Below, piece by piece: positions 22,896 through 53,589 of a DNA stretch of 64,000 nucleotides (position 1 is its first letter; each line of letters starts with the position of its first letter). Under the pieces are notes generated by a model that was not told where the DNA came from, ran no database searches, and was given only the letters and a program-made list of their open reading frames with translations. The stretch is from Dehalococcoidales bacterium (GTDB taxonomy: Bacteria > Chloroflexota > Dehalococcoidia > Dehalococcoidales > RBG-16-60-22): positions 3,590 through 67,589 of the forward strand of contig DAOULX010000042.1 in NCBI GenBank assembly GCA_034414775.1, written 5' to 3'. A program made the translations under genes and the position numbers.

Positions 22896-25800
22896 TTGAA
22901 TATGACAAACCCGGAGGTTGACAAAGATATGGCGTTAACCGGCAAGGTAATAATCGATACAGGGGAAATCGATGCGGTGATTCTTGATATGGATGGTGTC
23001 ATCACCCAGACCGCTGACATCCATGCCGCTGCCTGGAAAGAGCTTTTCGACGAGTACCTGAAAACCCGGGCGGACCGTTCCGGGGAGAAGTACCGGCCGT
23101 TCGAAATCGATCCCGATTATTTCCAGTACGTTGACGGGAAACCCCGTGATGACGGCGTGAAAAGCTTCCTGGAATCCCGCGGCATGTCTATCCCGCTGGG
23201 GGGAAAAGCTGATTCTGAAGACCAGGAGACTGTCCGGGGGTTGGGTAGCCGAAAAAACCGGTATTTTCTCGAGCAACTGAGGCAGGAGGGAGCCACTGCT
23301 TTCCAGTCTTCGGTGGATTTTGTAAAAGAGCTCAAAGCTCTCGGCATTTACGTGGCGGTAATATCGGCCAGCCGGAACGCCGAGGAGGTATTACGGTCTG
23401 CCGGGGTACTCGACCTGTTTGACGTCAAGGTTGACGGCGTTGACGCCGGTGAACTCAGGTTAAAGGGTAAGCCCAATCCGGCTATATTCCTGGAGGCCGC
23501 CAGGCGGCTGAATGTCCGGCCGGACCGGGCGGCCGTGGTCGAAGATGCCATAGCCGGTGTCCAGGCTGGCCGAAGGGGTAACTTCAAGCTTGTCATTGGA
23601 GTCGACCGTACCGGGCAGGAGGAAAACCTCCGGGAAAATGGCGCCGATGTAGTCGTGGCGGACCTGTCCTGGCTTGGTATCAAACAACCGACCCGCCCGA
23701 AGTCATTCGGCCGCCCGCTGAACAGCCTTCCATCTGCCCTGGAACGGAGAGAAGAAATTTTCGCCCGGCTGAGTGAAAAGAGTCCCGCAATTTTCCTTGA
23801 CTTCGATGGTACGCTGGCACCAAGAGTTAAAGCCCCGGCCGAGGTGGTTCTTTCCGGGAAGACCCGGCAGGTCATCAAACACTTGGGCAGACACTATTCG
23901 GTTGCCGTTGTCAGCGGACGTGATCTGGATGACATTCGTAAACTGGTCGATATCAATGACATCGCCTACGCGGGTGGTCATGGAATAGACATTTCCGGCC
24001 CGGGTAACGCCTTCCGGAGAGAGGAACGCGGTAAAGAGTTCCTGCCGGCACTCACCCGCGCCGAGAAAGAATTACGCGGGGCACTCAAACGTATCAAGGG
24101 GATAAAGATTGAACGTAAACACTTCAGCGTTTCCGTTGATTATTGCCGGGTCAATGAGGCTGACCTGGGTACATTCAAGGAGAGGCTTGACGGGGTGGCC
24201 TCAAATAATCCAAGGTTGAAAAAGACCGCCGGTGAAATGTTGTTTGAGCTGACGCCCAAAATCGATTGGAACAAGGGCAAGGCTGTCTTAGCCCTGATGG
24301 ACGTATTATATGCGGACAGCAGTAAGATTACGCCTCTTTATATTGGCGAGGATACCGCCGATGAAAAGGCTTTCCGCGCCATGGGGGAACGGGGTATCGG
24401 CATCGCCGTTGGTAAGGGGCGCCGCCGGACCCTGGCGCATTACCGGCTGCACGATCCGGATGAGGTCAGGGAGTTTCTGGCAGGACTGGGGGCGCTGGCG
24501 GAAAAGAAGGTCTCTCGAGGCATCTGGTCGCTTGTTTTCGATGGTTTCGTTCCCGAGGAAGAAGGGTTGAGAGAGGCCCTGTGCACGCTGGGTAACGGCT
24601 ATTTCGCCACCCGTGGCGCTGCTCCCGAGTCTAAGGCAGACGCGGTTCACTATCCAGGCACCTATGTCGCGGGATGCTTTAACCGGCTGACCAGCAAGAT
24701 AGCTGGCAAGAAAATCGAGAATGAAAGCATGGTGAACCTCCCGAACTGGCTGCCGCTGTCGCTGCGTTTCAACGACGGCGCCTGGTTCGATGTTGAGAAG
24801 GTCCAGGTGCTGGAATACGAGCAGGAGCTCGACCTGAGACGGGGCGTCCTGAACCGGCGGATACGCTTTGCCGATGAGCAAGGCCGCCGGACACGCCTGC
24901 TGCAACGCCGTTTTGTCAGCATGGCCGATCCTCATCTGGCAGGGATAGAGACCACCATCGTCGCGGAAAACTGGTCGGGGCAGTTATCGGTCAGATCGGC
25001 GCTTGACGGGACGGTAACCAACGACGGCGTGGCCCGCTACCGGCAACTGGATTGTCAGCATCTAGTACCGCTGGAATGCTCCCGCATCAATAACGAGACG
25101 ATATTACTGCAAGTGGAGACATATCATTCGCACATCCGGATTGCCGAAGCGGCACGAACGAGATTGTTCCTTGACGCCACCCAGCTCACTCTGGAACCCG
25201 CGACTATAGAAGACAAGGGCTTTATCGCCCAGGAGTTCAGCATCCCTGTAAAGACGGGGGGGCAGATAAGCGTTGAAAAGATAATATCTTTATATACGTC
25301 TCGGGATTCGGCTATTTCGGAGAGTGGTGAAGCCGCCCGGGAATCCGTGGCACGTGCCCCGGGCTTTGAGGGGCTTCTGGAACGCCACGTGATGAGCTGG
25401 GCTAACCTCTGGAACCGGAGCCGTATCGCCATCGAAAACGGCGAGCGTGTGGCCATGATCCTGCACCTGCATATCTTTCACTTATTGCAGACGGTTTCGC
25501 CCAATAGCATCGGTCTTGACGTGGGTGTACCGCCGAGGGGCCTCCACGGCGAGGCTTATCGCGGCCATATCTTCTGGGATGAGCTGTTTATATTTCCATT
25601 TTTAAACCTGAGCATTCCGGATATCACCCGCTCGCTGCTGTTGTACCGTTACCGGCGCCTGCCGGAAGCACGCTGGGCGGCCGCCCGGGCCGGGTTCCGG
25701 GGGGCGTTGTACCCGTGGCAGAGCGGCAGCGACGGACGGGAGGAGAGCCAGACACTCCATCTGAATCCCCGCTCGGGGCGATGGCTACCCGACAACTCAC

Positions 25801-26942
25801 ACCTGCAAAGGCATATCAATATCGCTATCGCCTATAATATCTGGCTTTACTACCAGGTGACCGGCGATGTCGATTTTCTCTCTTACTATGGAGTGGAGAT
25901 GCTCGTCGAAATCGGGCGGTTCTTCGCCAGCATCGCCACATACAATCGCACGCTGGACCGTTACGAGATCCGCCGGGTCATGGGTCCTGACGAATACCAC
26001 GATTCTTATCCGAACGCCAGCGAACCCGGCATCGACAATAACGCCTATACCAATGTAATGACGGTCTGGCTGCTCTGCCGGATCCTGGAAGCACTTGATA
26101 TAATCCCCCCGGATAGGAAGGAGTCACTCCAGGATAAACTGGATCTTAGACGCCAGGAGCTGGAGCATTGGGATGACATCAGCCGTAAAATGCGGATCGT
26201 CTTCCATGACGGCGGTATCATAAGCCAGTTTGAGGGCTATGATGCTCTTGAGGAGTTCGATTGGAAAGGCTACGAAAAGAAGTACGGTAAAATCGAGCGC
26301 CTCGACCGTATCCTCGAGGCGGAAGACGATACTCCCAACCGGTACAAAGTCTCTAAGCAGGCCGATGTGCTAATGTTGTTTTACCTGCTTTCATCCGATG
26401 AACTGCGGGAGCTGTTCGGCCGGCTTAACTATCCCTTTGAATATGAGACCATTCCCAGGAACATCGATTATTACCTTCATCGTACTTCCCATGGCTCTAC
26501 TTTGAGCCGATTGGTGCATGCCTGGGTACTGGCCCGCTCCAAACGTGAACTTTCCTGGCACCTTTTCAAGGAGGCCCTGGAGAGCGATGTTTCCGATATT
26601 CAGGGCGGTACGACGATGGAGGGTATTCATCTCGGTGCCATGGCGGGGACGGTAGACCTGGTGCAGCGCTGTTTCACCGGGATCGAAACCCGCCGGGACA
26701 AGCTGCAGTTAAACCCGGTGCTACCAAACGAGCTCAAAGACATCCAGTTCGATATTGTGTTCCGTCGGCAGCATCTCAACCTTCAATTTACCCATAACCG
26801 GCTGATTATCAAGGGACAGCCGGGTGAAGTGTCACCGGTCAGGATTGGCTTCGGAAACCTGGAAACCGATCTCAAACCTGGTGAGACCATGGAATTCAAG
26901 CTTCCGGATCCCTTGGCGAACCCTGATGATCTTACCAGGTAG
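22896..26942 (+). CDS. Tri-domain fusion: beta-phosphoglucomutase-like HAD + trehalose-phosphatase-like HAD + GH65 glycoside phosphorylase
   Basis: Domain 1 has DAVILDMDGVIT...KGKPNP...VEDAIAGVQAG. Domain 2 has AIFLDFDGTLAP...VSGRD...GEDTADE. The C-terminal roughly 780 aa have a GH65 pattern (HIFWDELFIFPF, GPDEYH, QADVLML). The architecture is that of mycobacterial OtsB1-like proteins. Confidence 0.85.
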   Translation: MNMTNPEVDKDMALTGKVIIDTGEIDAVILDMDGVITQTADIHAAAWKELFDEYLKTRADRSGEKYRPFEIDPDYFQYVDGKPRDDGVKSFLESRGMSIPLGGKADSEDQETVRGLGSRKNRYFLEQLRQEGATAFQSSVDFVKELKALGIYVAVISASRNAEEVLRSAGVLDLFDVKVDGVDAGELRLKGKPNPAIFLEAARRLNVRPDRAAVVEDAIAGVQAGRRGNFKLVIGVDRTGQEENLRENGADVVVADLSWLGIKQPTRPKSFGRPLNSLPSALERREEIFARLSEKSPAIFLDFDGTLAPRVKAPAEVVLSGKTRQVIKHLGRHYSVAVVSGRDLDDIRKLVDINDIAYAGGHGIDISGPGNAFRREERGKEFLPALTRAEKELRGALKRIKGIKIERKHFSVSVDYCRVNEADLGTFKERLDGVASNNPRLKKTAGEMLFELTPKIDWNKGKAVLALMDVLYADSSKITPLYIGEDTADEKAFRAMGERGIGIAVGKGRRRTLAHYRLHDPDEVREFLAGLGALAEKKVSRGIWSLVFDGFVPEEEGLREALCTLGNGYFATRGAAPESKADAVHYPGTYVAGCFNRLTSKIAGKKIENESMVNLPNWLPLSLRFNDGAWFDVEKVQVLEYEQELDLRRGVLNRRIRFADEQGRRTRLLQRRFVSMADPHLAGIETTIVAENWSGQLSVRSALDGTVTNDGVARYRQLDCQHLVPLECSRINNETILLQVETYHSHIRIAEAARTRLFLDATQLTLEPATIEDKGFIAQEFSIPVKTGGQISVEKIISLYTSRDSAISESGEAARESVARAPGFEGLLERHVMSWANLWNRSRIAIENGERVAMILHLHIFHLLQTVSPNSIGLDVGVPPRGLHGEAYRGHIFWDELFIFPFLNLSIPDITRSLLLYRYRRLPEARWAAARAGFRGALYPWQSGSDGREESQTLHLNPRSGRWLPDNSHLQRHINIAIAYNIWLYYQVTGDVDFLSYYGVEMLVEIGRFFASIATYNRTLDRYEIRRVMGPDEYHDSYPNASEPGIDNNAYTNVMTVWLLCRILEALDIIPPDRKESLQDKLDLRRQELEHWDDISRKMRIVFHDGGIISQFEGYDALEEFDWKGYEKKYGKIERLDRILEAEDDTPNRYKVSKQADVLMLFYLLSSDELRELFGRLNYPFEYETIPRNIDYYLHRTSHGSTLSRLVHAWVLARSKRELSWHLFKEALESDVSDIQGGTTMEGIHLGAMAGTVDLVQRCFTGIETRRDKLQLNPVLPNELKDIQFDIVFRRQHLNLQFTHNRLIIKGQPGEVSPVRIGFGNLETDLKPGETMEFKLPDPLANPDDLTR

Positions 26943-29146: not shown

Positions 29147-29377
29147 ATGCTCTGTGTGATACGTACCAAGAGTTGCAAAAGATGCGGGGGAGACCTCTCA
29201 TTGGAAAGTGATGTCTACGGCGTCTATATCCAGTGCATCCAGTGTGGCGCCAGCTATAACAAAGATAACCTGCCGCCGGCGGCCCTTCAGTCTCAAAAGG
29301 CTCTGAGAGCTGTCAAAGCTCCACCCTGGGCGGTTACGACTCTTCACCCATCGAAGCCCGCAGGTAAGCATCTATAA
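29147..29377 (+). CDS. Small zinc-ribbon hypothetical protein
   Basis: MLCVIRTKSCKRCGGDL...CIQCGA contains two CxxC pairs, with the RBS-like AAGGGGA upstream. The 3' end overlaps convergent prfB by 44 nt, so the call is tentative. Confidence 0.35.
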   Translation: MLCVIRTKSCKRCGGDLSLESDVYGVYIQCIQCGASYNKDNLPPAALQSQKALRAVKAPPWAVTTLHPSKPAGKHL

Positions 29378-30432
29378 AGCCGTCCAGTTCGCCGTCCAGC
29401 ACGGCCTCGGTATTACTCGTCTCGAAGTCGGTGCGGTGGTCCTTGACCATACGGTAGGGATGTAAGACATAGCTCCTGATCTGATTGCCCCAGCCAGCCT
29501 CGATACGCCTGCCTTTGAGCCTGGCTTTTTCTTCCTCGCGTTTTTCAAGCTCCTGTTCCAGGAGACGCGCCCGAAGGATCTTAAAGGCGAACTCCTTGTT
29601 CATGTACTGTGAGCGCTCGCTCTGGCAGGTCACCGTGACGCCGGTCGGCAGGTGGGTCAACCGCACGGCGCTGCTGGTCTTCTGCATGTGTTGGCCTCCG
29701 GGGCCGCTGGAACGGAACGTCTCTACCCTGACGTCGTCGGGGGAGATCTCCAGCTCGACATCGGATTCGGCCTCGGGCATCACCTCCACCAGGGCAAAAG
29801 AGGTATGGCGGGCATGATCGGCGTCGAAGGGGGAGAGACGTACCAGGCGATGGACGCCGTGCTCGGATTTCAGGTAACCGAAGGCGTACTGGCCGCTGAC
29901 GGCAATAACGGCGCTCTTGATACCGGCCTCATCGCCGGGGGAGGTATCCAGTACTTCTGCCTCGAAGCCGCGACGCTCGCACCAGCGCAGGTACATACGT
30001 ATCAAAATTTCGGCCCAGTCCTGGGACTCGGTGCCGCCGGCGCCGGCATGAATGGCCAGGATGGCATTGCGGGTGTCGTACTCGCCGCCGAGTGAGAGCT
30101 GAAATTCCAGTTCGTCGAGTTTTGCCGCCAGCTCGTCCAGTTCCTTCTCCAGACCGGCCTGGAGGGAGTTGTCTTCCTCGGCCAGGGGGATTAATTCAGC
30201 AGCATCGGCCAGCTTTTTCTCCAGTTCCCGCCAGGACTGTACCGTTCGAGTCAGGCTGGCAAGCTGACGCATGGTATCTTGAGCATTGGTCTGGTCGAGC
30301 CAGAAATCGGGATTGGATGATTGCTTTTCCAGCGCGGTTATTTCTTTTTCTTTTCCGGCGATGTCAAAGATGCTCCACGGCCTCGGCTACCCGGGCCCGC
30401 AAGTTTTTCAGTTTATCGATCAATTCCTGCAT
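29334..30432 (-). CDS. prfB: Peptide chain release factor 2, with programmed +1 frameshift
   Basis: ATG at 30432 gives MQELIDKLKNLRARVAEAVEHL. The sequence CTT TGA C follows (TGA at 30366-30364), preceded by an SD-like GGAG. The +1 frame continues DIAGKEKEITALEKQSSNPDFW... into the 312-aa ORF, which contains the SPF and GGQ motifs. Confidence 0.92.
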
Positions 30433-38726: not shown

Positions 38727-38767
38727 AAAAAACCACACCCCGCCCCCGGAATCCCGGGGAGCGGGGT
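38727..38767 (-). terminator. GC-rich hairpin with T-tract downstream of CetZ-like gene A
   Basis: The minus strand reads ACCCCGCTCCCCGG-GATT-CCGGGGGCGGGGT, then GTGG, then TTTTTT. It lies 27 nt after the stop at 38794, between convergent genes. Confidence 0.5.
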
Positions 38768-38793: not shown

Positions 38794-39969
38794 TTACAAT
38801 AGTGAGGGGATGTCTTTGGAGACGTCATCCAGCGCCTTGAGCTTGTCCTCCGTCTCCTCCTGGCGTTTCTTGAACTCGGGGATAAGGTCGGTCGAGCGGA
38901 GATAGTAGTCGCGTACTTTCTCAACGTCGCTGAGCTCGGAGAGAAGTACGGTAACATCTACCAGGCCCCTTTCCCTGGGGTAGTCACCGTTGCGGATGAT
39001 GGCCTCCGGCGCGATGTCCCTCATATAATCGCCGATCTCTTTGACCATGTCCATGTTCATTTCCTTGGCCGGGCCGGACACCAGGTATAGCGCCCGGCGC
39101 GAATCGGCGGGATTGCATTTCAGGGAAAGCTCGCTGATGGCCTCATCCATAGCCTGGATGCCCTTCTGGATCTCGGTGCCCTTCTTGCGGAAATCGCTCT
39201 TCCACTCGGTCGGCCACTTGAACAGGGGAGCCTGGGTCTTACCGTAGCCGATGACTGTCCAGCCGACCACGGTCTGGATAATGTCCCCGGCGTCGAGCAG
39301 CTTGGCACCGATGAACTTGGACTTCTTTTCCTCGCCGGCGCAGAGCATATTATAGAACGGCTCGGCAATCATGCCATTTATTTTGGATAGATTGGTCTGG
39401 ATGGAAGAGTCCTTTCTTACGTAGCGCTGGTTATCAACGAGGAAGACGGCATCGGCGACCGAGTAGCAGGACTTGAGGCAGGTGGCCACGTTGAAGACGG
39501 TCCTTTCCTCGGTAGTCTCTTCGTGCTCGAAAGGCAAGACAATCAGGTTCCAAATCGGTTTATCGATGTAGCGTTCCTTCAGGTGCTGCGAGACGATGGA
39601 GATAGCGCCGGATCCGGTGCCTCCTGCCGAACCGGCGATAAGGAGGAAGGCGTCCGTTTCGAAGAAGTGCTTGGTTGTCCTGATCGCGTCTACGATTTTA
39701 TCGGAATCTTCCTTGGCTATCTCGGCACCGAGCTCGTTGATTTTCCCGACGCCGTGGCCGCCGGTCTTGCGGCTACCGATAAGGATCCGATGGCGGTGGT
39801 CGTTACCTATGCTGGACAGGCCGCTCAGATCAGCGGCATCAGTATTGACAGCGAAACAGCCTGTGACGATGGTCATACGACGGCGGCTACGGGCTTTGGA
39901 ATTAAGCCGAGCAAATTCATCGGCAATTCTGCCACCGCACTGCCCCAAGCCAACAACGACTAATTTCAT
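38794..39969 (-). CDS. Tubulin/FtsZ-superfamily GTPase, CetZ-like (paralog A)
   Basis: 391 aa. The T1 loop is MKLVVVGLGQCGGRIADEF, the T4 tubulin signature is SAGGTGSGA, and a T7-like loop is KLLDAGDII. An FtsZ-type C-terminal domain pattern is present (RALYLVSGPAKEMNMDMVKEIG...VDVTVLLSEL). The tail ends KDIPSLL. The RBS is AGGGGG. Confidence 0.85.
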   Translation of the reverse strand: MKLVVVGLGQCGGRIADEFARLNSKARSRRRMTIVTGCFAVNTDAADLSGLSSIGNDHRHRILIGSRKTGGHGVGKINELGAEIAKEDSDKIVDAIRTTKHFFETDAFLLIAGSAGGTGSGAISIVSQHLKERYIDKPIWNLIVLPFEHEETTEERTVFNVATCLKSCYSVADAVFLVDNQRYVRKDSSIQTNLSKINGMIAEPFYNMLCAGEEKKSKFIGAKLLDAGDIIQTVVGWTVIGYGKTQAPLFKWPTEWKSDFRKKGTEIQKGIQAMDEAISELSLKCNPADSRRALYLVSGPAKEMNMDMVKEIGDYMRDIAPEAIIRNGDYPRERGLVDVTVLLSELSDVEKVRDYYLRSTDLIPEFKKRQEETEDKLKALDDVSKDIPSLL

Positions 39970-39997: not shown

Positions 39998-40027
39998 ATT
40001 TTAAGCATAATGTCAGCGCAATGTCAA
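39998..40027 (-). promoter_or_regulatory. Sigma70-type promoter of CetZ-like gene A
   Basis: The minus strand reads TTGACA (40027-40022), an 18-nt spacer, then TAAAAT (40003-39998), about 28 nt upstream of the ATG. Confidence 0.5.
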
Positions 40028-40121: not shown

Positions 40122-40150
40122 TTGAAAAAGTGCTACCCGAATAATATAAT
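40122..40150 (+). promoter_or_regulatory. Sigma70-type promoter of the 818-aa repeat protein gene
   Basis: TTGAAA-N17-TATAAT is followed by the RBS GGGGGGTGG and the ATG at 40183. It is divergent from the CetZ-like A promoter within an AT-rich 213-bp spacer. Confidence 0.5.
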
Positions 40151-40182: not shown

Positions 40183-42639
40183 ATGTCTCCGAATCTGAGG
40201 GAAGAAGTCGAGGGGAATATCACAGATTTCGAACGGGCGGTAGCTAAGGCTGAGGAACTCAGCCGGGCTGCCCGAGAGGCTGCCGGTAAATCGACGAAGA
40301 GCGCCATGGAAGCCGCTCAGCGGGCGGAGGAGGTGGGGCTGAAGGCCAAGAAGGCGGCGGAAGATGCCGCCAGGGCGGCCCAGGATGCGATAGCCCGGGC
40401 GGAAAAAGTCAGCCGGGAGGCCAAAGAGGCCGCTGACGCAGCGATGAAAGCCGCTAATGAAGCCATCGCCAAGTCGGAGGAGATCGCCAAGCGGCCGCAG
40501 GAAACGGCCCAATCCATGGCCAAAGCCTTCGAGGAAGCTATCGCACGGGCGGAGAAGATTGGTGGGGAAGCGATGCGGGCGGCGGAATCGGCATTGATGC
40601 TTTCCCAGGAGAGGCTCCAGCGCATCGATGAAATCAGCCGCGAAGCCAAGAAAATAGCTGATACAGCCGAAGAAACAACCCAGGAGGCTATTTCCACAGC
40701 AGAATCAGCCGTTAGCGCCGCCAGAGAGGCCACCGAAGAGTCAATCAGAGCAACCAAGGAAGCTACCAAACAGGCGGAAAAAATGGCCCGAGAGGCCAGG
40801 GAGGCCGCCGAGGCAACCACCAAGGTGTCCAAAGACGTGGTAAGCCGGACGGAGAAGACCAGTCTGTCCACCCGGGAAGCCGCCGAAGTAGCCGCCCGGG
40901 CCGCTGAGGAAGTAGCCACGCGGGCGGAGACTATCAGCAAGGTAGCCCGTGAGGTCGCCGAGGCGTCACAGCGTTCATCCCAGGAAACGATGAACCGTGT
41001 TGAAATGGTGAGTCGGGAGGCCAAACTGGCCAACGACGCTTCTCAGAAGACCGCCCAGGAAGCACTCAAGCGGGCGGAAGACGTTACCAGGGAGACTAGA
41101 GCCGCTACGGATATGGCGGCCAAGATTGCCAAGGAGGCTTCGGCAGCTTCTGTGAAGGCCTCACAGGAAGCGATGGCCAAGGCTGAACTTCTGAGCCAGG
41201 AGGCCGGTACCAAAGCTGCTGCAGCGGCTACCGAATTACAGGAGGCGGTCGCCAGGGCGGAGCAGGTATCACGGGATACCATTGATGCTACCGAAACGGC
41301 CGTGAGGAATGTGAAGGAAGCCCAAGCCCTTACGGAGAAACAGAGTCAGACCGCCAGGGAGGAGGCCGAGGCGGCGTCGCTGTCCGCCCGGGAAGCCGCC
41401 GAAATGGCCGCGCAGTCTGCCCGGGAAACCGCCGAGGCAGCCGCACAATCAGCCAAGGAGGCCGCCCGGGCAGCCGCCGAGAATGCCCGGCAGGCCGCCG
41501 AAGCTGCGGCACAGTCGGCGCGAGAGGCCGCCGATGCGTCAGCCCAACAGGCCAGCGAGGATGTGGAAGCCGCTTCACGTAGCGCCTGGGAAGCGACCGA
41601 GGCGGCAGCTGTAGCCGTGCGGGGTGCAGTCGATGCTGCTGTACAGAAGATACTAGAGGCTTCTCAGAAGACGACTGAAGAATCCGCCGCGGCTGTAACC
41701 AGAGTCGAAGAAGTTAGCGGTGAAGCCCGGCAGAAGTCGGAGGCCGCTTCTGAAGAGTTCCGCCAGGCGGTGGCGCGGATGGAAGAAATAAATAATGCAG
41801 CCGGGGTGTCCGTCGAGGAATCGGCCAGGAGCGCCCGTGAAGCGGTCGAAAAGATCGAGAAAGAGACCCAGGAAGCGGTGGCCAGGGCCGAGGAGATTGG
41901 CCAGTCCGCCAAACAGACAGCCGAGGAATCGACAAGAGTGATGCGGGAAGCCATCGACGCCGCCATTGCGACAGTGCAGGAGACGTCCCAGGTATCCCAA
42001 CAGGAAATCCAGGAGGCGATCGCCAGAGCTGAGGAAATCAGCCGGGAGACAAAGGAAGCGGCCGAGGCAGCGGTCCAGGCCGCCCGGGAAGTGACGGACG
42101 GGCTGGTCAAAGCCGCCACGGAATCCGCGGAGAGGACGGTCAAGGCGGTCAAGGAAGCCACCGAAGCAGCCGCCAAGGTTGCCCGAGAAGCTGCCGGGGT
42201 TTCCATTTCCGCTTTCAGGGAGGCGATAAGCCGGGCGGAGACAAGCGGGCAGCTGGCCAGGCAGACAGCGGACGAGTCCTTCCGCCGCTACGAAGAGTCC
42301 CTGGGTAAGGTCCGGCAAGACGAAACCGGAGAAGGCGAAAGTCAGGAAGAAACCCCGGTCAGCGCCGAAGATGCTGTTGAAGATGAGATGGCCGCTACGC
42401 TGGAGACAGATACCGAGTTTGAGACCGAGATGGGGAGCGCTCAGGATTTGGAGGAAGAAGAGCTAGGCTCGGACATAAAGCTGGAAAAGGAAGACGTTAA
42501 AAACAACGACAAGAACGGTTCAAGGGGAGAACCCAAGGGGAAAATGGAAGCTCGTCTTGAATCCCTGGCCCGGATGTATGAGGCCAAGAGAAACCAGCAA
42601 TCCGGCAAGGGAGATGAGAATAACGATAACGGCGAATGA
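40183..42639 (+). CDS. 818-aa Ala/Glu-rich all-helical repeat protein (25-residue and 11-residue repeats) with an acidic disordered tail
   Basis: A long ORF with RBS and promoter. It has no TM segment and no signal peptide. About 20 copies of a motif resembling A-[IV]-A-R-A-E-x-[IV]-S-R-E-A-K-x-A-A are present. The conserved Glu falls at residues 24, 49, 74, 99, 124, (D149), 174, 199, 224, 249, 274 and 299. A pure 11-mer block covers about residues 392-480. The C-terminal roughly 130 aa are Glu/Asp-rich. Confidence 0.85.
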   Translation: MSPNLREEVEGNITDFERAVAKAEELSRAAREAAGKSTKSAMEAAQRAEEVGLKAKKAAEDAARAAQDAIARAEKVSREAKEAADAAMKAANEAIAKSEEIAKRPQETAQSMAKAFEEAIARAEKIGGEAMRAAESALMLSQERLQRIDEISREAKKIADTAEETTQEAISTAESAVSAAREATEESIRATKEATKQAEKMAREAREAAEATTKVSKDVVSRTEKTSLSTREAAEVAARAAEEVATRAETISKVAREVAEASQRSSQETMNRVEMVSREAKLANDASQKTAQEALKRAEDVTRETRAATDMAAKIAKEASAASVKASQEAMAKAELLSQEAGTKAAAAATELQEAVARAEQVSRDTIDATETAVRNVKEAQALTEKQSQTAREEAEAASLSAREAAEMAAQSARETAEAAAQSAKEAARAAAENARQAAEAAAQSAREAADASAQQASEDVEAASRSAWEATEAAAVAVRGAVDAAVQKILEASQKTTEESAAAVTRVEEVSGEARQKSEAASEEFRQAVARMEEINNAAGVSVEESARSAREAVEKIEKETQEAVARAEEIGQSAKQTAEESTRVMREAIDAAIATVQETSQVSQQEIQEAIARAEEISRETKEAAEAAVQAAREVTDGLVKAATESAERTVKAVKEATEAAAKVAREAAGVSISAFREAISRAETSGQLARQTADESFRRYEESLGKVRQDETGEGESQEETPVSAEDAVEDEMAATLETDTEFETEMGSAQDLEEEELGSDIKLEKEDVKNNDKNGSRGEPKGKMEARLESLARMYEAKRNQQSGKGDENNDNGE

Positions 42640-42690: not shown

Positions 42691-42719
42691 TTGACTTTTA
42701 AATATTAGGGCAATATACT
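42691..42719 (+). promoter_or_regulatory. Sigma70-type promoter of the 162-aa repeat protein gene
   Basis: TTGACT-N17-TATACT lies about 90 nt upstream of the GTG start at 42811. Confidence 0.5.
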
Positions 42720-42810: not shown

Positions 42811-43299
42811 GTGGCCAACCCGAAGGAACGAACCAAGAAGACTACAGCAGAACTTGAACCCGAACCATCTGTAGAAGTGGCACCGGAGGAACAGCCCAAG
42901 AGTCCTCTTGATGAGGTCATGAGCCAGGCCGAAAAGGCCTATGCCGCTTATATGGACGCCGAGCGGCAGGTGGCCCGGGCCTATCATGAGAACGAGGTGC
43001 AGGTGGCCAAGGCTTACAAGCGGGCGGAGGAGCAGGCCGCCCGGGCTTATGAAGCGGCCGTTGCGAAGGCATTGAAAGACCGTGACGAGGCGATATCGCG
43101 GGCGGCTAAAAGCCGTGAGGACATGATGAGGCGGGCTGAAGAGGCTTACCAGGCGGCCGTCGATTCAGCCTGCGCCAATAGTGAAACGGCCATTGCCGAG
43201 GCTGTTAAAGTTCGTGATGAAAGCGTTGAGAAAGCCTGGCAGGTACGCGACCAGACCATTGAACAGGCCTGGCAGATTTACTCCAAGATAGCCAGGTAG
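42811..43299 (+). CDS. 162-aa hendecad-repeat helical protein
   Basis: The start is GTG, preceded by AAGGAGG. After a Pro/Glu-rich N-terminus, an aromatic residue recurs every 11th residue (Y47, Y58, Y69, Y80, Y113, then W143 and W154). Confidence 0.75.
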   Translation: MANPKERTKKTTAELEPEPSVEVAPEEQPKSPLDEVMSQAEKAYAAYMDAERQVARAYHENEVQVAKAYKRAEEQAARAYEAAVAKALKDRDEAISRAAKSREDMMRRAEEAYQAAVDSACANSETAIAEAVKVRDESVEKAWQVRDQTIEQAWQIYSKIAR

Positions 43300-43415: not shown

Positions 43416-44591
43416 TTAAAGCAGCGAGGGTATATCCTTGATGGTAATATCAATCCCTCGCTGCGTACTTATTGCACCCTCCTGGCGTTTCTTCAATTCG
43501 CTCATGAGATTGATAGCCTTGGTAAAGTAGTTCCTAACCTTCTCCACATCGCTGAGTTCGGATAGTATCAGGGTTATATCCACAGCGCCTTTTTCACGGG
43601 GGTAATCGCCGCTCCTGATGATAGCTTCTGGGGACATATTCTTGATGTGGGCTCCCATTTCCTTGATAAGGTCCACGTTGATTTCCTTGGCCGGGGCGGA
43701 AACCAGGTAGAGAGCCCTCTTCGAGTCCAGCGGATTACACCTGATGGACAGGCCGCTGATGGCGGAATCGAGGGCCTGGATGCCCTTCTGTGTTTCCGTA
43801 GCTTTGTTCCTGAAATGGCGGTTGCGGCCGAAGAGGTTTTTAAACGCGGAAGTGTGGGACCGGCCATATCCCAGAGTTGTCCAGCCTACCAGTGTCTGGA
43901 TGATATCCCCCGCATCTAGTATCTTGGCGCCGATGTGGCGGGACTTTATCTCCTCGCCGGCGCAGAGCAGATCGTAGAAGGGTTGGACGATGGTAGTGTT
44001 AATGCGGTGGAGGTTGCCCATGATATGCCGGTCTTTCATGACATAGCGCTGGTTATCGATGAGGAAGACGGCATCGGCAACCAGGTAGCTGGACTTGAGG
44101 CAGGTAGCCACGTTGTAAACCGTCCTTTCCTCGGTGGCCTCTTCATGTTCAAAGGGCAGGATGATGAGGTCGTAAACAGGCTTATCGACATAGCGTTCTT
44201 TTATCTGTTGGGTCATAACGGAGATGGCGCCGGAACCGGTGCCGCCGGCTGCCCCGGCAATAAGCAGGAAGGCATCGGTTTCCTGAAAGCCCTTCGAGCT
44301 TCTGATGGTCTCGATGATTTTATCGGCGTCTTCCCGGGCGACTTCGGCGCCGAGCTCGTTGATTTTACCGACGCCATGGCCCTGGGTCTTCTTATTACCG
44401 ATGAGGATACGGGTGTCATAGCGAGGTTTTATGGTCTTCAGGCCATGGAGGTCGGCTAAATCGGTATTGACGGCGAAAGCGCCGGTGATTATATTCAGCC
44501 CGCGGGTACTACGTGCCCGACTATTAAGCCGGGCGAACTCGTCAGCAATCCTGCCACCGCATTGCCCCAGGCCGATGACGATTAGTTTCAT
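43416..44591 (-). CDS. Tubulin/FtsZ-superfamily GTPase, CetZ-like (paralog B)
   Basis: 391 aa, collinear with paralog A without gaps and roughly two-thirds identical by eye. The same motifs are present (GLGQCGGRIADEF, AAGGTGSGA, KILDAGDII), and it ends in the identical KDIPSLL. Confidence 0.85.
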   Translation of the reverse strand: MKLIVIGLGQCGGRIADEFARLNSRARSTRGLNIITGAFAVNTDLADLHGLKTIKPRYDTRILIGNKKTQGHGVGKINELGAEVAREDADKIIETIRSSKGFQETDAFLLIAGAAGGTGSGAISVMTQQIKERYVDKPVYDLIILPFEHEEATEERTVYNVATCLKSSYLVADAVFLIDNQRYVMKDRHIMGNLHRINTTIVQPFYDLLCAGEEIKSRHIGAKILDAGDIIQTLVGWTTLGYGRSHTSAFKNLFGRNRHFRNKATETQKGIQALDSAISGLSIRCNPLDSKRALYLVSAPAKEINVDLIKEMGAHIKNMSPEAIIRSGDYPREKGAVDITLILSELSDVEKVRNYFTKAINLMSELKKRQEGAISTQRGIDITIKDIPSLL

Positions 44592-44619: not shown

Positions 44620-44648
44620 ATTGTACGCAATAAATAATGGGATGTCAA
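44620..44648 (-). promoter_or_regulatory. Sigma70-type promoter of CetZ-like gene B
   Basis: The minus strand reads TTGACA (44648-44643), a 17-nt spacer, then TACAAT (44625-44620), about 28 nt upstream of the ATG at 44591. Confidence 0.55.
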
Positions 44649-49410: not shown

Positions 49411-49893
49411 TCATGGTTCTAGAAGCTCCAACGCCTTGTTGACCGCATCTTGTGGGCTGGCCGCCACGATAATGTTATCGTATTTTCGACCTTCAATAGC
49501 TATCTCCCAGGTGTTCAGGCCGATAACGGGGATCCCGCTCTGGAGAGCATGGCCGATCTCCGAGAGAGTGCCGTAGCTGCCATCGACGGCGATGACAACC
49601 TGACATGATTTAACTACGGCAACGTTTCGGGCATAACCTATGCCGGTGACGATGGGAATTCGGACATAGGGATTGGCCGCCAGGCGATTCTCCCCGGGGA
49701 GGATGCCGATCGTAAGACCACCTTCGGCGGCGGCTCCCCGGCAGGCGGCCTCCATAACACCCCCCAATCCCCCGCATACCAGGACCGCGCCCCGCCGGGC
49801 AATCTCGCGGCCGACCTCTTCCGCCAGGTCGGCTATCCGGGGAGGCACTTCGCTACCACCGATCACGCCGATAAAAACAGGTCTATCTTTCAA
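49411..49893 (-). CDS. TIGR00725 / LOG-like Rossmann-fold protein
   Basis: 160 aa with GVIGGS...VCGGLGGVMEAACRGA...GIGYARN, the pattern of the TIGR00725 family. Confidence 0.75.
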   Translation of the reverse strand: MKDRPVFIGVIGGSEVPPRIADLAEEVGREIARRGAVLVCGGLGGVMEAACRGAAAEGGLTIGILPGENRLAANPYVRIPIVTGIGYARNVAVVKSCQVVIAVDGSYGTLSEIGHALQSGIPVIGLNTWEIAIEGRKYDNIIVAASPQDAVNKALELLEP

Positions 49894-50073: not shown

Positions 50074-51201
50074 TTAAGTGAAGTGACGTTGCTTGGCCGA
50101 CTCGCTCGGTGTTTCACTGGATGCCACGTGCCGTCGGTGACTGAAAAGGGGACGGCGCAGGAAGGAAGGCATATCCAGCTCGTCCTCTGTCTTCATGCCT
50201 TTCAGGATCTTGGTGAGCTCGTCATCCTCGGTCTCCTGGCCCATGCCCAGCTTGGCATGGAATCCGGTGGTGATGAGGGTAATCCTCACTTCGTTTTCCA
50301 TGGACGGGTCATTGGCGACGCCGAAGATGATGTTGGCATCCGGATCGACAGCCTGTTTGATGACATCGGCCGCCTGGTTGACCTCGAACAGAGAGAGATT
50401 GCTGCCGCCGACGACGTTAAACAGGACAGCCTTGGATCCTTCGATGGACACATCGAGGAGCGGACTGGCCAAGGCTTCCTTGGCAGCATCGGTGGCCCGG
50501 TTCTGTCCGGATCCCTTACCGATTGACATCCAGGCCGGGCCGGCATCCTTCATGATGGCCTTGACATCGGCGAAGTCGAGGTTGATCATACCGGGGGTGG
50601 TAATCACCTCGGCGATGGCCTGGACGCCGTGTCGCAGGACATCATCGGCGAGCTTAAAGGCGCTGTCGACACCGGTCTTGTGGTCACAGAGAGTCAGCAG
50701 GCGGTCGTTGGGGATGATAATCAGGGTATCGACCTTATCGATCAGGGTAGTGATGCCTTCTTCAGCCGTCTCCATGCGGTGAGCACCCTCGAAAGTGAAG
50801 GGTTTGGTAACTACGGCGATGGTCAGGGCACCGCTGTGCTTGGAAATCTCCGCTAATATCGGGATAGCACCGGTACCGGTACCGCCGCCCATACCCGCTG
50901 TGATAAACACCATGTCCGCACCGGAGAGGATCTCCTTCAGCTCATCGCGGTTTTCCTCGGCGGCCTTTTGCCCGATGCGATGGTCGCCGCCGGCGCCGAG
51001 TCCCTTGGTCAGCTTGGGGCCAAGCTGGACGCAAACCGGGGCTTCACAGATCGCCATAGCCTGGGCGTCCGTGTTCATGGCGATGAATTCTACCCCCTGG
51101 ATGTTTTCCCTGACCATACGTGTTACGGCATTGCTGCCACCACCACCCAGACCGACGACTTTTATCCTGGCTGGGTTGGTTACAAAACTTGTTCTAGCCA
51201 T
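50074..51201 (-). CDS. ftsZ: Cell division protein FtsZ (canonical)
   Basis: 375 aa with [18 protein letters not shown] and NLDFADV motifs and a C-terminal peptide LDMPSFLRR. Confidence 0.97.
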
Positions 51202-51245
51202 CTCCTCCTCCTTTCACTGATACCTTTTTATTTATTATTCTGTTT

Positions 51246-52448
51246 TCATACGAAGAACTTTTTAAGCTGGGCCGCGATGCGGTTGAATAGCCCCGGTTTC
51301 CAGTTCCTCCTACTCTGGTATTTGCTCCCCCAGAGCAGCAGACCGACACTGGTGGCGTAGGCCGGGTCACGGAGTGTGTCGGCGATACCATGGAGGTTAG
51401 CAGGGGCGCCAACCCTCACCGGGAGCTTGAGGATATCGCGCCCGAGGGCAGCCATGCCGGATAGATTGGCACTGCCACCGGTAAGCACCAGACCGGCGGG
51501 TACCAGTGCTTCGTAGTCCGAATTCGGCATTTCCAGGAGGATGAGCTTCAAGATTTCCTCGACCCTGGCCCGGATGATGTCGCAGAGGTCCTGATAGGAT
51601 ACGCCGTGGCCGTCTTTGGATATAGCCGGAGCCGTATCACTTTTGCTTTCATAAACAGGCATAACACTGCCGTACTTTTTCTTCATCTCTTCGGCAATCT
51701 CGAACGGCAGCCCCAGGCCGATAGCGACATCGCGGGTGAGCTGGTATCCGGCTACCGGTAGAATGGAGGTATGCCAGATGCTGCCTTCCCTGAAGACAGC
51801 AACGTCCGTGGTGCCACCACCGACATCAGCCATGATGACACCGACCTGCTTTTCGTCATCGGTGAGGATGGCCTCGCTGCTGGCCAGGGGCTCCAGGACA
51901 AGGTCTTCGATGTCTATCCCGATGCTCCGGATGCATTTGACCAGGTTCTGGATCGAGGTCACCGCCGCTGTGATAATATGGGTTTCCACGTCGAGTCGGA
52001 AGCCGTGCATGCCGACGGGATTTTTAACGCCCGTCTGACCGTCGACGGCATAGGCGCGGGGGATAACGTGAAGCAGTCTTCTATCAGTGGCGGTCTTCAC
52101 GCTCTGGGCGGAGGCCAGGACCCGTTTCAAGTCGTCCGGGCGTACGACGCGGTCGTTACGAGTGATAGCGACAACGCCGTGGTTGTTGATCGACGTAACG
52201 TGGCGGCCGGTAACGCCGACGTAGGCAGATTCCACTTTATAATTGCTGGCCTGCTCCGCCTTTTTAACCGAGTCCCTGATGGATTCCCTCGCTTCGTTGA
52301 TATTGACCACGAGCCCTTTGTGCAGCCCCCGGGAAGGAGAAACGCCCACGCCCAGGATGCGAGGGCCGCCGTCACTGACATCCGAAAGTATCGTACAAAT
52401 CTTGGTCGTGCCAACATCAACTGAAGCTACGACATTCTGTTTTTTCAT
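51246..52448 (-). CDS. ftsA: Cell division protein FtsA
   Basis: 400 aa with actin-fold motifs (VDVGTTK, DVGGGTTD). It lies immediately upstream of ftsZ and has a strong RBS, AAGGAGGG. Confidence 0.95.
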   Translation of the reverse strand: MKKQNVVASVDVGTTKICTILSDVSDGGPRILGVGVSPSRGLHKGLVVNINEARESIRDSVKKAEQASNYKVESAYVGVTGRHVTSINNHGVVAITRNDRVVRPDDLKRVLASAQSVKTATDRRLLHVIPRAYAVDGQTGVKNPVGMHGFRLDVETHIITAAVTSIQNLVKCIRSIGIDIEDLVLEPLASSEAILTDDEKQVGVIMADVGGGTTDVAVFREGSIWHTSILPVAGYQLTRDVAIGLGLPFEIAEEMKKKYGSVMPVYESKSDTAPAISKDGHGVSYQDLCDIIRARVEEILKLILLEMPNSDYEALVPAGLVLTGGSANLSGMAALGRDILKLPVRVGAPANLHGIADTLRDPAYATSVGLLLWGSKYQSRRNWKPGLFNRIAAQLKKFFV

Positions 52449-52536
52449 CTGCCCTCCTTAAATATCCGTGGTCTTTCGTACCATATTTCTTTCGGTTCTC
52501 ACATACAAGAACCTCCTTTATTGGTTTGCTTATGGT

Positions 52537-53589
52537 TCAAGCGGCCAATAATACCGTCTTGATCTTTTGTAACAGGGCTGGCCGACGCCATCCCCGATAC
52601 TCGGCGATGGTGAGGACCGGATGGTCTCGGGCGGCGTCGGGCGAAGAGTTGTTATTGATCACACGCTGCGCGGCCCTCATTTTGGCGCTGCGGCTGCGCA
52701 CGTTGAGCCCGATTTCGGCTCGGGTGGGGGTAATGACTTTCTTGTTGACCAGTTCCAGGCGTGGGGTATGGCCGCAGATACAGGCCGGCGTCCCCGGGGG
52801 GCAAATACAACCGCGGGACTCTGTCTGCATGAACTGCTTGACGATTCTGTCTTCGAGAGAGTGGTAGCTGATGACTACCAGCCGGCCAGCGTGGCCGAGG
52901 AGATCAACGGCCTGTCTCAGAGCGGCTTCCAGGTGTTCCAGTTCGTGGTTGACGGCGATGCGGAGCGCCTGGAAGGTTTTCGTGGCCGGGTGAATACGGC
53001 CGCTCCGTCCGATGGCCGTTTCAACCAGTGATGCCAGCTGGCGAGTTGTGGAAACGGGACGATTCTCCACGATAATCCGGGCAATTCTGCGACTGCGCTT
53101 TTCCTCGCCGTAGGTCTTGATGATATGGGCCAGCCGGGCTTCCGGTGTCGTGTTGACGATATCGGCGGCGGTGGTCTTTTGGGTGGGATTAAATCTCATG
53201 TCCAACGGGGCATCGGTCTGGAAGCTGAAACCGCGCCGGCTTCCGTTGAGCTGAAGGGAGGACAGTCCCAGATCGAAAAGGATGCCGTGTACGGGGAAAA
53301 AGTCATATTTAATACAAATGGATTGCAGATTGGCGAAATTATCATTGACCAGGAGGGCGGACTCCTTATAGCGCTGGAGTCTTTTCTTCGCCGCCTCGAT
53401 AGCGGCGGGGTCGGCGTCAATACCCAGAAGCTGACCCCCCGGAGAGCTGTGGTCGAGGATAGCCGCGGCGTGCCCGCCGGCACCGACGGTGCAATCGATA
53501 TAGCGGCCGCCAGGCTGTACAGCGAGGGCGCGAAGCGCCTCAGAGAGGAGGACCGGGGTGTGGGTGTGGGTTGATCTCTGGTTCACCAT
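52537..53589 (-). CDS. rsmH: 16S rRNA (cytosine1402-N4)-methyltransferase RsmH
   Basis: [15 protein letters not shown] and FDLGLSS motifs are present. The protein is about 40 aa longer at the C-terminus than typical RsmH. Confidence 0.92.

Follow-up and report, generated by a model that had tools for sequence, protein, structure and literature searches.

CetZ proteins are presented in the literature as a third branch of the tubulin superfamily, one that shapes wall-less cells, and the family has been described as archaea-specific (PMC9856176, PMC11621097). Sparse "CetZ-like" sequences from Chloroflexota-Dehalococcoidia, the C-termini of which match the CetZ_C model at ~1e-10, have been reported by Santana-Molina et al. 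(2023, PMC9871819). The subject here is a pair of paralogous genes, A and B, in a 64,000-nucleotide stretch of DNA from a Dehalococcoidales bacterium (GenBank assembly GCA_034414775.1, contig DAOULX010000042.1, positions 3,590 to 67,589 of the forward strand), which is referred to as the window throughout. The two genes flank a pair of genes for helical-repeat proteins; the resulting four-gene block is previously undescribed, and A and B are further CetZ-type proteins. An earlier note on this DNA had recognised a mixed tubulin/FtsZ character in the pair and likened it to CetZ, but it did not stress that the host is a bacterium, which stands against the archaea-specific status given to the family.

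Family assignment of the two paralogs

A and B are CetZ-family GTPases of the tubulin superfamily, as judged by their Pfam matches, their closest sequences in the PDB and their closest folds. The two genes and their diagnostic loops are located as follows.

38794..39969, minus strand: paralog A, CetZ-like, 391 aa, ATG start (open reading frame; Pfam Tubulin and CetZ_C; AlphaFold2 model)
43416..44591, minus strand: paralog B, CetZ-like, 391 aa, ATG start (same evidence)
39925..39951, minus strand: T1 loop GLGQCGGRI of A, which aligns with GFGQAGGKV of CetZ1
44547-44573, minus strand: T1 loop GLGQCGGRI of B, checked by translation against the window coordinates
39604..39630, minus strand: T4 signature SAGGTGSGA of A, matching the tubulin pattern [SAG]GGTG[SA]G
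44226-44252, minus strand: T4 signature AAGGTGSGA of B, matching the same pattern
39277..39300, minus strand: T7 loop and start of helix H8 of A, LLDAGDII, with the acidic pair D226/D229
43899-43922, minus strand: T7 loop and start of helix H8 of B, ILDAGDII, with the same acidic pair

The Pfam Tubulin domain (PF00091) matches A at 1.9e-31 and B at 7.3e-32 (110 and 112 bits against a cut-off of 33), and CetZ_C (PF21011) matches them at 8.7e-16 and 1.3e-17 (58 and 64 bits against 21.6); given these E-values, all of them above the gathering cut-offs, the resemblance is far beyond chance. The Pfam scan gave no match to FtsZ_C (PF12327) or to Tubulin_C in either protein, and both fall below the threshold of the FtsZ equivalog TIGR00065 (58 bits against a cut-off of 295). 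In a phmmer search of the PDB the best match of A is Haloferax volcanii CetZ1 (4b46, 3.6e-43), followed by CetZ2 (4b45, 1.7e-26) and the CetZ of Methanosaeta thermophila (3zid, 1.5e-14). The best FtsZ, at 4.5e-10, ranks behind all three CetZ structures, and the matches to tubulin and BtubB are weak and partial (8e-6 to 1e-4). AlphaFold2 models of A and B are of high confidence (predicted local distance difference test, pLDDT, 93.3 and 93.2; predicted template modelling score, pTM, 0.91 and 0.90) and have an identical order of secondary-structure elements. Foldseek searches of the PDB with both models place CetZ1, CetZ2 and the M. thermophila CetZ first, with template modelling (TM) scores of 0.92-0.93 and root mean square deviations of 2.1-2.6 Å, and the FtsZ structures after them. 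The view that the mixed tubulin/FtsZ motifs are a CetZ hallmark is therefore borne out, the Pfam, best sequence and best fold matches all being CetZ.

The motifs GLGQCGGRI, (S/A)AGGTGSGA and (L/I)LDAGDII, which had been read in both paralogs, were recovered by regular expression and translation at the positions above. In HMMER and MAFFT alignments T1, T4 and T7 share columns with those of CetZ1 (4b46, GDP-bound), CetZ2 (4b45, GTPgammaS-bound) and FtsZ, so that the motifs map onto the GTP pocket and the T7 catalytic loop; the mapping proposed in the earlier note as a check thus places them opposite the motifs of nucleotide-bound CetZ structures. D226 and D229 align with the catalytic pair of FtsZ (NxDxxD) and of CetZ (DxxE): D226 is invariant across CetZ and FtsZ in the alignments and D229 lies opposite the second catalytic acid. 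Two sets of 120 close relatives each contain 119 sequences with DxxD at T7, and in the AlphaFold2 models the loop connects H7 with H8, the position it has in the tubulin fold. The cysteine of T1 is not fixed. Alanine takes its place in locus L064, from a Dehalogenimonas metagenome-assembled genome (MAG), in L040_A and in 21 of 120 relatives found in a search with the L064 protein, and it is the commonest residue at this site among representatives chosen at 50% identity, labelled archaeal CetZ proteins included.

Outside the GTP pocket, two further segments invite comparison with CetZ.

38797..38817, minus strand: C-terminal tail KDIPSLL-COOH of A, kept in orthologs
43419-43439, minus strand: C-terminal tail KDIPSLL-COOH of B, identical to that of A
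39193..39231, minus strand: M-loop of A, APLFKWPTEWKSD, in the most divergent A/B segment
43815-43853, minus strand: M-loop of B, TSAFKNLFGRNRH, in the same segment

The tail is kept in all A and B orthologs, reads RDIPSLLE in Dehalococcoides mccartyi and becomes ELPLL, ELPTL or ELPNL in distant relatives of 53-56% identity. In Haloferax CetZ1 the tail is LESLF, and its mutation abolishes rod formation (bioRxiv 10.1101/2024.04.08.588506). Judging from its sequence, KDIPSLL is a further feature common to A, B and CetZ. The M-loop (residues ~247-259) is long and rich in aromatic and hydrophobic residues, and resembles that of the CetZ1 subfamily; the pLDDT drops here to 63 in A and 58 in B, and a short helix at 253-256 in the A model is missing from B.

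Divergence and selection

A and B are identical at 258 of 391 positions (66%, with 83% positives and no gaps by BLASTP), in agreement with the two-thirds previously estimated by eye. Between them the nonsynonymous divergence (dN) is 0.26 and the synonymous divergence (dS) about 1.5, with a proportion of synonymous differences (pS) of 0.65; because synonymous sites are saturated the A-B dN/dS of ~0.17 is unreliable, and ortholog comparisons were used instead. Where dS was usable, the ortholog pairs of A (579 pairs) have a median dN/dS of 0.054 and those of B (308 pairs) one of 0.075, far from the value of 1 that would indicate decay. Purifying selection is strong on A and B alike, and neither copy is decaying. 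No gene conversion between A and B was seen, the nucleotide identity being 68% and the longest identical run 19 nt. The earlier note's picture of an old duplication maintained by selection holds on all these counts, namely dS, the lack of a conversion tract, ortholog dN/dS and the presence of both copies in ~45 genomes. At the protein level B evolves two to three times faster than A. Ortholog identity in a tblastn survey of 80 loci spans 77-95% for A and 71-84% for B, and at locus L001 it is 95% for A and 81% for B.

The differences between the paralogs are unevenly distributed. Their consensus sequences are 90-100% identical in the T1, T3, T4, T5 and T7 blocks, 40-50% in two surface loops, 40% in H10, 30% in the M-loop and 10-40% in the C-terminal helix and linker. 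Eleven sites are kept (at least 90%) within each paralog and differ between A and B; most of these changes are conservative, and ten are found in the C-terminal half (H9, H10, S9, H11) and not in the T3, T5 or T7 loops. The GTP pocket is spared by the A/B differences, and this divergence points to lateral or partner contacts. Single-copy proteins side with A at the difference sites, with 8/0, 5/3 and 6/0 matches to A and B respectively, so that A is ancestral-like and B derived.

The four-gene block and its promoters

In ~45 public MAG contigs among the 80 loci the order is GAPDH, B, a gene for a 162-aa protein, a gene for an 818-aa protein, A and DnaX, with the two central genes facing the opposite way to GAPDH, A and B. 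In the window the block contains the following further features.

40183..42639, plus strand: 818-aa Ala/Glu-rich helical-repeat ("coiled-coil") protein, between the paralogs, recognised from composition, periodicity and repeats
42811..43299, plus strand: 162-aa helical protein with hendecad-like AY repeats, between the paralogs, recognised from orthologs
39998..40027, minus strand: promoter-like site of A, TTGACA-18-TAAAAT, near-consensus match
44620..44648, minus strand: promoter-like site of B, TTGACA-17-TACAAT, near-consensus match
40122..40150, plus strand: promoter-like site of the 818-aa gene, TTGAAA-17-TATAAT, lying in an AT-rich spacer and divergent from that of A
42691..42719, plus strand: promoter-like site of the 162-aa gene, TTGACT-17-TATACT, near-consensus match
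38737..38752, minus strand: terminator-like hairpin and T-run directly after the A stop codon, consensus match only

The 818-aa protein is composed of 24% alanine and 17% glutamate, has a hydrophobic periodicity of 3.62 residues and repeats of 11, 25 and 36 residues, and ends in an acidic tail. Its orthologs in 43 loci range from 643 to 911 aa and keep the N-terminus as well as a C-terminal motif, MEARLESLARMYExKK. This motif, MEARLESLARMYE(T/A)KK, stands ahead of the acidic tail (window 42520-42600 and orthologs in 43 loci) and is a candidate interaction peptide. Orthologs of the 162-aa protein (159-193 aa, 43 loci) share a conserved core and are always located between B and the 818-aa gene. 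Both helical-repeat genes are confined to lineages with a B-type copy. All Pfam and NCBIfam matches of the two proteins are below threshold (BORCS6, DUF6658, DivIVA/SctL-like), searches of the PDB returned designed helical repeats only, and a word-indexed homolog search with the 162-aa protein gave six fragments only. By the outcome of these searches the helical-repeat proteins belong to no described family.

Each of the four genes is predicted to possess its own near-consensus sigma-70-type promoter. The TTGACA -35 element is kept upstream of A in 50 of 57 loci and of B in 39 of 46, and across loci the -10 element lies 25-34 nt ahead of the start codon at both.

Distribution and origin

The window is bacterial, carrying genes for DnaX, YbaB, RecR, RecO, RadC, RF2, FtsA, FtsZ and RsmH, and the A/B region has a base composition like that of its surroundings. 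MAGs are the source of all 80 related genome loci; apart from a few with other bin labels, they are labelled Dehalococcoidia or Chloroflexi.

The D. mccartyi ortholog, P0436, came up in a search with the protein of the Dehalogenimonas MAG; it is named "cell division protein FtsZ" by NCBI and "Tubulin-like protein CetZ" by UniRef. D. mccartyi has this one copy only, flanked by GAPDH and DnaX-YbaB-RecR as its counterparts in the window are. Between it and DnaX come three small genes, which encode a DUF2089 protein, an unannotated protein of 89-94 aa and a SHOCT-like DUF2089-C protein (L081/L082 9384-10480). No equivalents of them occur at this place in the window, where the helical-repeat genes are on the opposite flank of A. 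The abundant "hypothetical protein btf_0548" that has been reported near the tubulin gene may be one of the three. At L057 and L059, from two uncultured MAG lineages, one copy lies straight between GAPDH and DnaX, without the helical-repeat genes. The Dehalogenimonas MAG locus L064, too, has enolase and GAPDH upstream of its one copy, which is followed by a histidine kinase gene and not by DnaX. The block evidently arose in one Dehalococcoidales subclade by duplication of one ancestral gene that is still present at the same place in D. mccartyi and the Dehalogenimonas MAG. At L063 (10001-13749) a B-type copy and both helical genes are found with no A within 21 kb and no adjoining DnaX, from which it follows that the block can be rearranged and that B can move with the helical genes in the absence of A.

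Outside this neighbourhood, more distant single CetZ-like genes (53-56% identity) occur in Dehalococcoidia at L067, L069, L070, L075, L077, L078 and L079, where they follow a gene for a ~560-aa signal-peptide protein on the same strand, at a gap of ~40-90 bp (~400 bp in L075; for example L069 8226-9911). The upstream protein has IPT/TIG and Ig-like domains, and its end, ...RDRVGLYD, is kept in L067, L077, L078 and L079; in L077 and L078 its open reading frame was predicted as shorter or split. The protein may be a partner of the distant CetZ-like protein in the envelope.

A neighbour-joining distance tree (100 bootstraps) was built from 88 sequences, taken as representatives at 50% identity, a few of which have taxon labels (Dehalococcoidia, Chloroflexota, Bathyarchaeia, Nitrososphaerales, Haloplanus and Thermococcus); the contig of one representative shows a bacterial context (FtsH, MacB). 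The A and B clades have bootstrap values of 97% and 88%, and the nodes that would place the duplication before or after the L057 and L059 lineages reach 39-53%. The boundary of the CetZ family has been defined as the clade in which the Thermococcales CetZ are deepest (Brown and Duggin 2023, PMC9856176). The distance from A to H. volcanii CetZ1 is 1.23, against 1.17 from the Thermococcus CetZ to the same protein.

Proposed role and rival explanations

Taken as a whole, the locus is probably best explained as a CetZ filament system in which A is ancestral, B is specialised, the helical proteins are partners and the role is one in cell shape or the envelope. A and B would each polymerise head-to-tail into dynamic, GTP-dependent protofilaments like those of Haloferax CetZ1 and CetZ2, the T7 acidic pair of one subunit completing the active site of the adjacent one. 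The filaments may be recruited to the membrane or to partners via the KDIPSLL tail and the hydrophobic M-loop. A would continue the ancestral role, and B, altered chiefly in the M-loop, in H10 and in the helix and linker of the C-terminus, could be specialised in lateral association or partner binding, with the two helical-repeat proteins acting as filament-associated scaffolds or bundlers. The most likely role would be in cell shape or envelope organisation in a lineage without peptidoglycan, analogous to that of CetZ1 in wall-less haloarchaea; this remains a best guess by analogy.

The division genes of the same genome bear on this proposal.

50074..51201, minus strand: canonical FtsZ of the same genome (Pfam Tubulin and FtsZ_C; GGGGSN, GGGTGTG, NLDFAD and C-terminal DMPSFL)
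51246-52448, minus strand: ftsA, adjoining ftsZ
52537-53589, minus strand: rsmH, adjoining the ftsA/ftsZ cluster

The earlier note had been correct in attributing canonical FtsZ motifs to this copy, where GGGGSN, GGGTGTG and NLDFAD are all found. The cluster (window 50074-53589, minus strand) is reduced to rsmH-ftsA-ftsZ with no ftsL, ftsI, mur, ftsW or ftsQ between, which is consistent with a peptidoglycan-free cell in this member of the Dehalococcoidia. Peptidoglycan is known to be absent from Dehalococcoides, which along with Dehalogenimonas and uncultured Dehalococcoidales is described as having an archaeon-like envelope without it. In hosts without peptidoglycan the CetZ-type gene becomes a concrete candidate for keeping the disc shape. 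Co-culture proteomics of D. mccartyi BTF08 detected a "FtsZ/Tubulin GTPase", btf_0551, which together with FtsZ was less abundant when cells shifted from discs to unusual barrels (PMC8163811), and this lends indirect support to a link with shape.

Several points weigh against the proposal. The protein btf_0551 is a putative ortholog of A and B, and the drop in FtsZ alongside it fits a division role equally well, so that the shape role amounts to an analogy and one correlative proteomics result. What ties the helical-repeat proteins to the filaments is the proximity of their genes. MAFFT aligns the tail DIPSLL with DMPSFL, the similar C-terminal peptide of the window FtsZ, and a tail of this kind could mean FtsA binding and association with the divisome. 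The deep nodes of the tree, in which the Dehalococcoidia clade lies beside the archaeal CetZ clade, have bootstrap values of 9-53%, so that a place of A and B strictly within that clade is no more than a possibility.

The main rival to the cell-shape role is one in division, in which A and B would be accessory proteins, the bacterial counterpart of archaeal FtsZ1/FtsZ2, that join the Z-ring via FtsA in a wall-less bacterium. The tail likeness, the presence of FtsA in the window, the joint shift of the D. mccartyi tubulin-like protein and FtsZ, and the public annotation as "cell division protein FtsZ" all speak for it. It is nonetheless judged improbable in view of the sub-threshold score against the FtsZ equivalog, the lack of FtsZ_C, nearest sequences and structures that are CetZ and not FtsZ, and the location of both genes outside the division gene cluster; moreover, archaeal CetZ1 has a like tail (LESLF) that is needed for rod-shape development. 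CetZ1 is also reportedly dispensable for division. Bacterial tubulin-superfamily paralogs encoded outside the division cluster are often TubZ or PhuZ, and A and B could in principle be DNA-segregation tubulins of a mobile element. They are, however, chromosomal, with the housekeeping neighbours enolase, GAPDH, DnaX, YbaB and RecR conserved in D. mccartyi and uncultured Dehalococcoidales; their base composition matches that of the surroundings, TubZ and PhuZ are absent from the 60 matches listed of 63 PDB sequence matches, and neither a TubR-like gene nor centromere repeats were seen in the window. The mobile-element explanation, which has hardly any probability left, was rejected on synteny and similarity.

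A different question is whether A and B work together as an obligate heteropolymer or heterodimer like alpha/beta-tubulin or BtubA/B, with which the earlier note had found the pair compatible. Both copies are retained together in ~45 genomes, are equal in length without indels and are under purifying selection, and their near-identical longitudinal-interface loops make A-B contacts sterically plausible. Such a partnership is still rather unlikely, and the comparison with alpha/beta-tubulin and BtubA/B found no support. No alpha/beta-type asymmetry is apparent, for A and B both keep D226/D229 and the full nucleotide motifs, their T3, T5 and T7 loops are 90-100% alike, and the 11 mostly conservative difference sites fall outside these loops, ten of them in the C-terminal half. 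Single-copy relatives, D. mccartyi included, manage with one protein; A and B are 3.4 kb apart and have their own promoters, unlike the btubA-btubB operon; and L063 has a B-type copy and the helical genes with no A within 21 kb. The evidence favours free mixing of A and B along a filament, or else a separate filament for each, with different lateral or partner contacts.

For the proposed CetZ filament system the implications extend beyond this genome. The CetZ-type gene, conserved, expressed and in one lineage duplicated, would be shared by Dehalococcoides, Dehalogenimonas and uncultured Dehalococcoidales, and provides a natural case in which to ask whether the function of CetZ goes along with wall-less life in both Archaea and Bacteria. 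Together with the two helical-repeat genes beside them, A and B form a compact system for the study of partner gain by a tubulin-like filament following duplication, and D. mccartyi, cultured and single-copy, is the practical entry point. More tentatively, the four-gene block may constitute a self-contained bacterial CetZ cytoskeleton, in which an archaeal-type homologue was acquired long ago by wall-less Dehalococcoidia and then duplicated, A forming the core filament and B its partner, while the helical proteins on the membrane set the shape. If true, this possible but doubtful arrangement would be the first case in bacteria of a shape-determining system built from the tubulin superfamily.

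Other genes in the window

The open reading frame of release factor 2 (RF2, prfB; window 29334-30430, minus strand) is without its N-terminus. Upstream of it lies ATG CAG ... GTG GAG CAT CTT TGA CAT, with the classic RF2 +1 frameshift site CUU UGA C preceded by a Shine-Dalgarno-like GGAG. A 1348-aa fusion protein (22896-26942, plus strand) combines HAD/beta-phosphoglucomutase-like, trehalose-phosphatase and GH65 phosphorylase domains, and possibly unites a trehalose or disaccharide phosphorylase pathway in a single polypeptide. Between enolase and FtsZ, at the same place as in D. mccartyi, is a gene for a small SLOG cluster4/LOG-like (DprA-related) protein (49411-49893, minus strand). An Rfam scan of the window gave three tRNAs only.

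Comparison with known systems

The "CetZ-like" sequences of Dehalococcoidia in PMC9871819 very probably belong to the same protein group as A and B. They receive a passing mention in that paper, where the A/B duplication, the four-gene block, selection, the tail motif and the expression link in D. mccartyi are not described, and no paper in the literature library that was searched deals with the duplication, the block or any function.

Of the other tubulin-superfamily systems, BtubA/BtubB of Prosthecobacter and alpha/beta-tubulin share with A and B the paired paralogs in one genome, a GQCG-type T1 and the GGTGSG of T4. A and B differ in lacking Tubulin_C, their C-terminal domain being of the FtsZ/CetZ type; their genes form no operon and have no bklc-like partner, and the proteins show no sign of an asymmetric interface. 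The bacterial FtsZ encoded in the window has the superfamily fold in common with A and B (TM ~0.83-0.85) and its T7 aspartate aligns with theirs, but it is 27% identical to them, carries GGGGSN, GGGTGTG and FtsZ_C, and has ftsA next door.

Archaeal CetZ proteins (4b46, 4b45, 3zid) are the closest relatives of solved structure, yet A and B stand apart from them in several respects. The host is bacterial, T1 mostly has cysteine (GQCG) and not alanine, the T4 of A and B opens with alanine or serine (AGGTGSG), identity to CetZ1 and CetZ2 is merely ~28-37%, and the neighbouring genes (two helical-repeat genes, GAPDH and DnaX) are unrelated to those around archaeal cetZ. The likenesses are the same two-domain architecture of Tubulin and CetZ_C, a T1 loop of the form GxGQxGG, a tubulin-type GGTGSG in T4, the acidic pair DxxD/E in T7 and a hydrophobic C-terminal tail, [LI]xSL[LF]-COOH, and with the CetZ1 subfamily in particular a long hydrophobic M-loop. 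Halobacteria likewise carry several CetZ paralogs per genome, and archaeal CetZ proteins, like A and B, are found in hosts without a rigid peptidoglycan wall.

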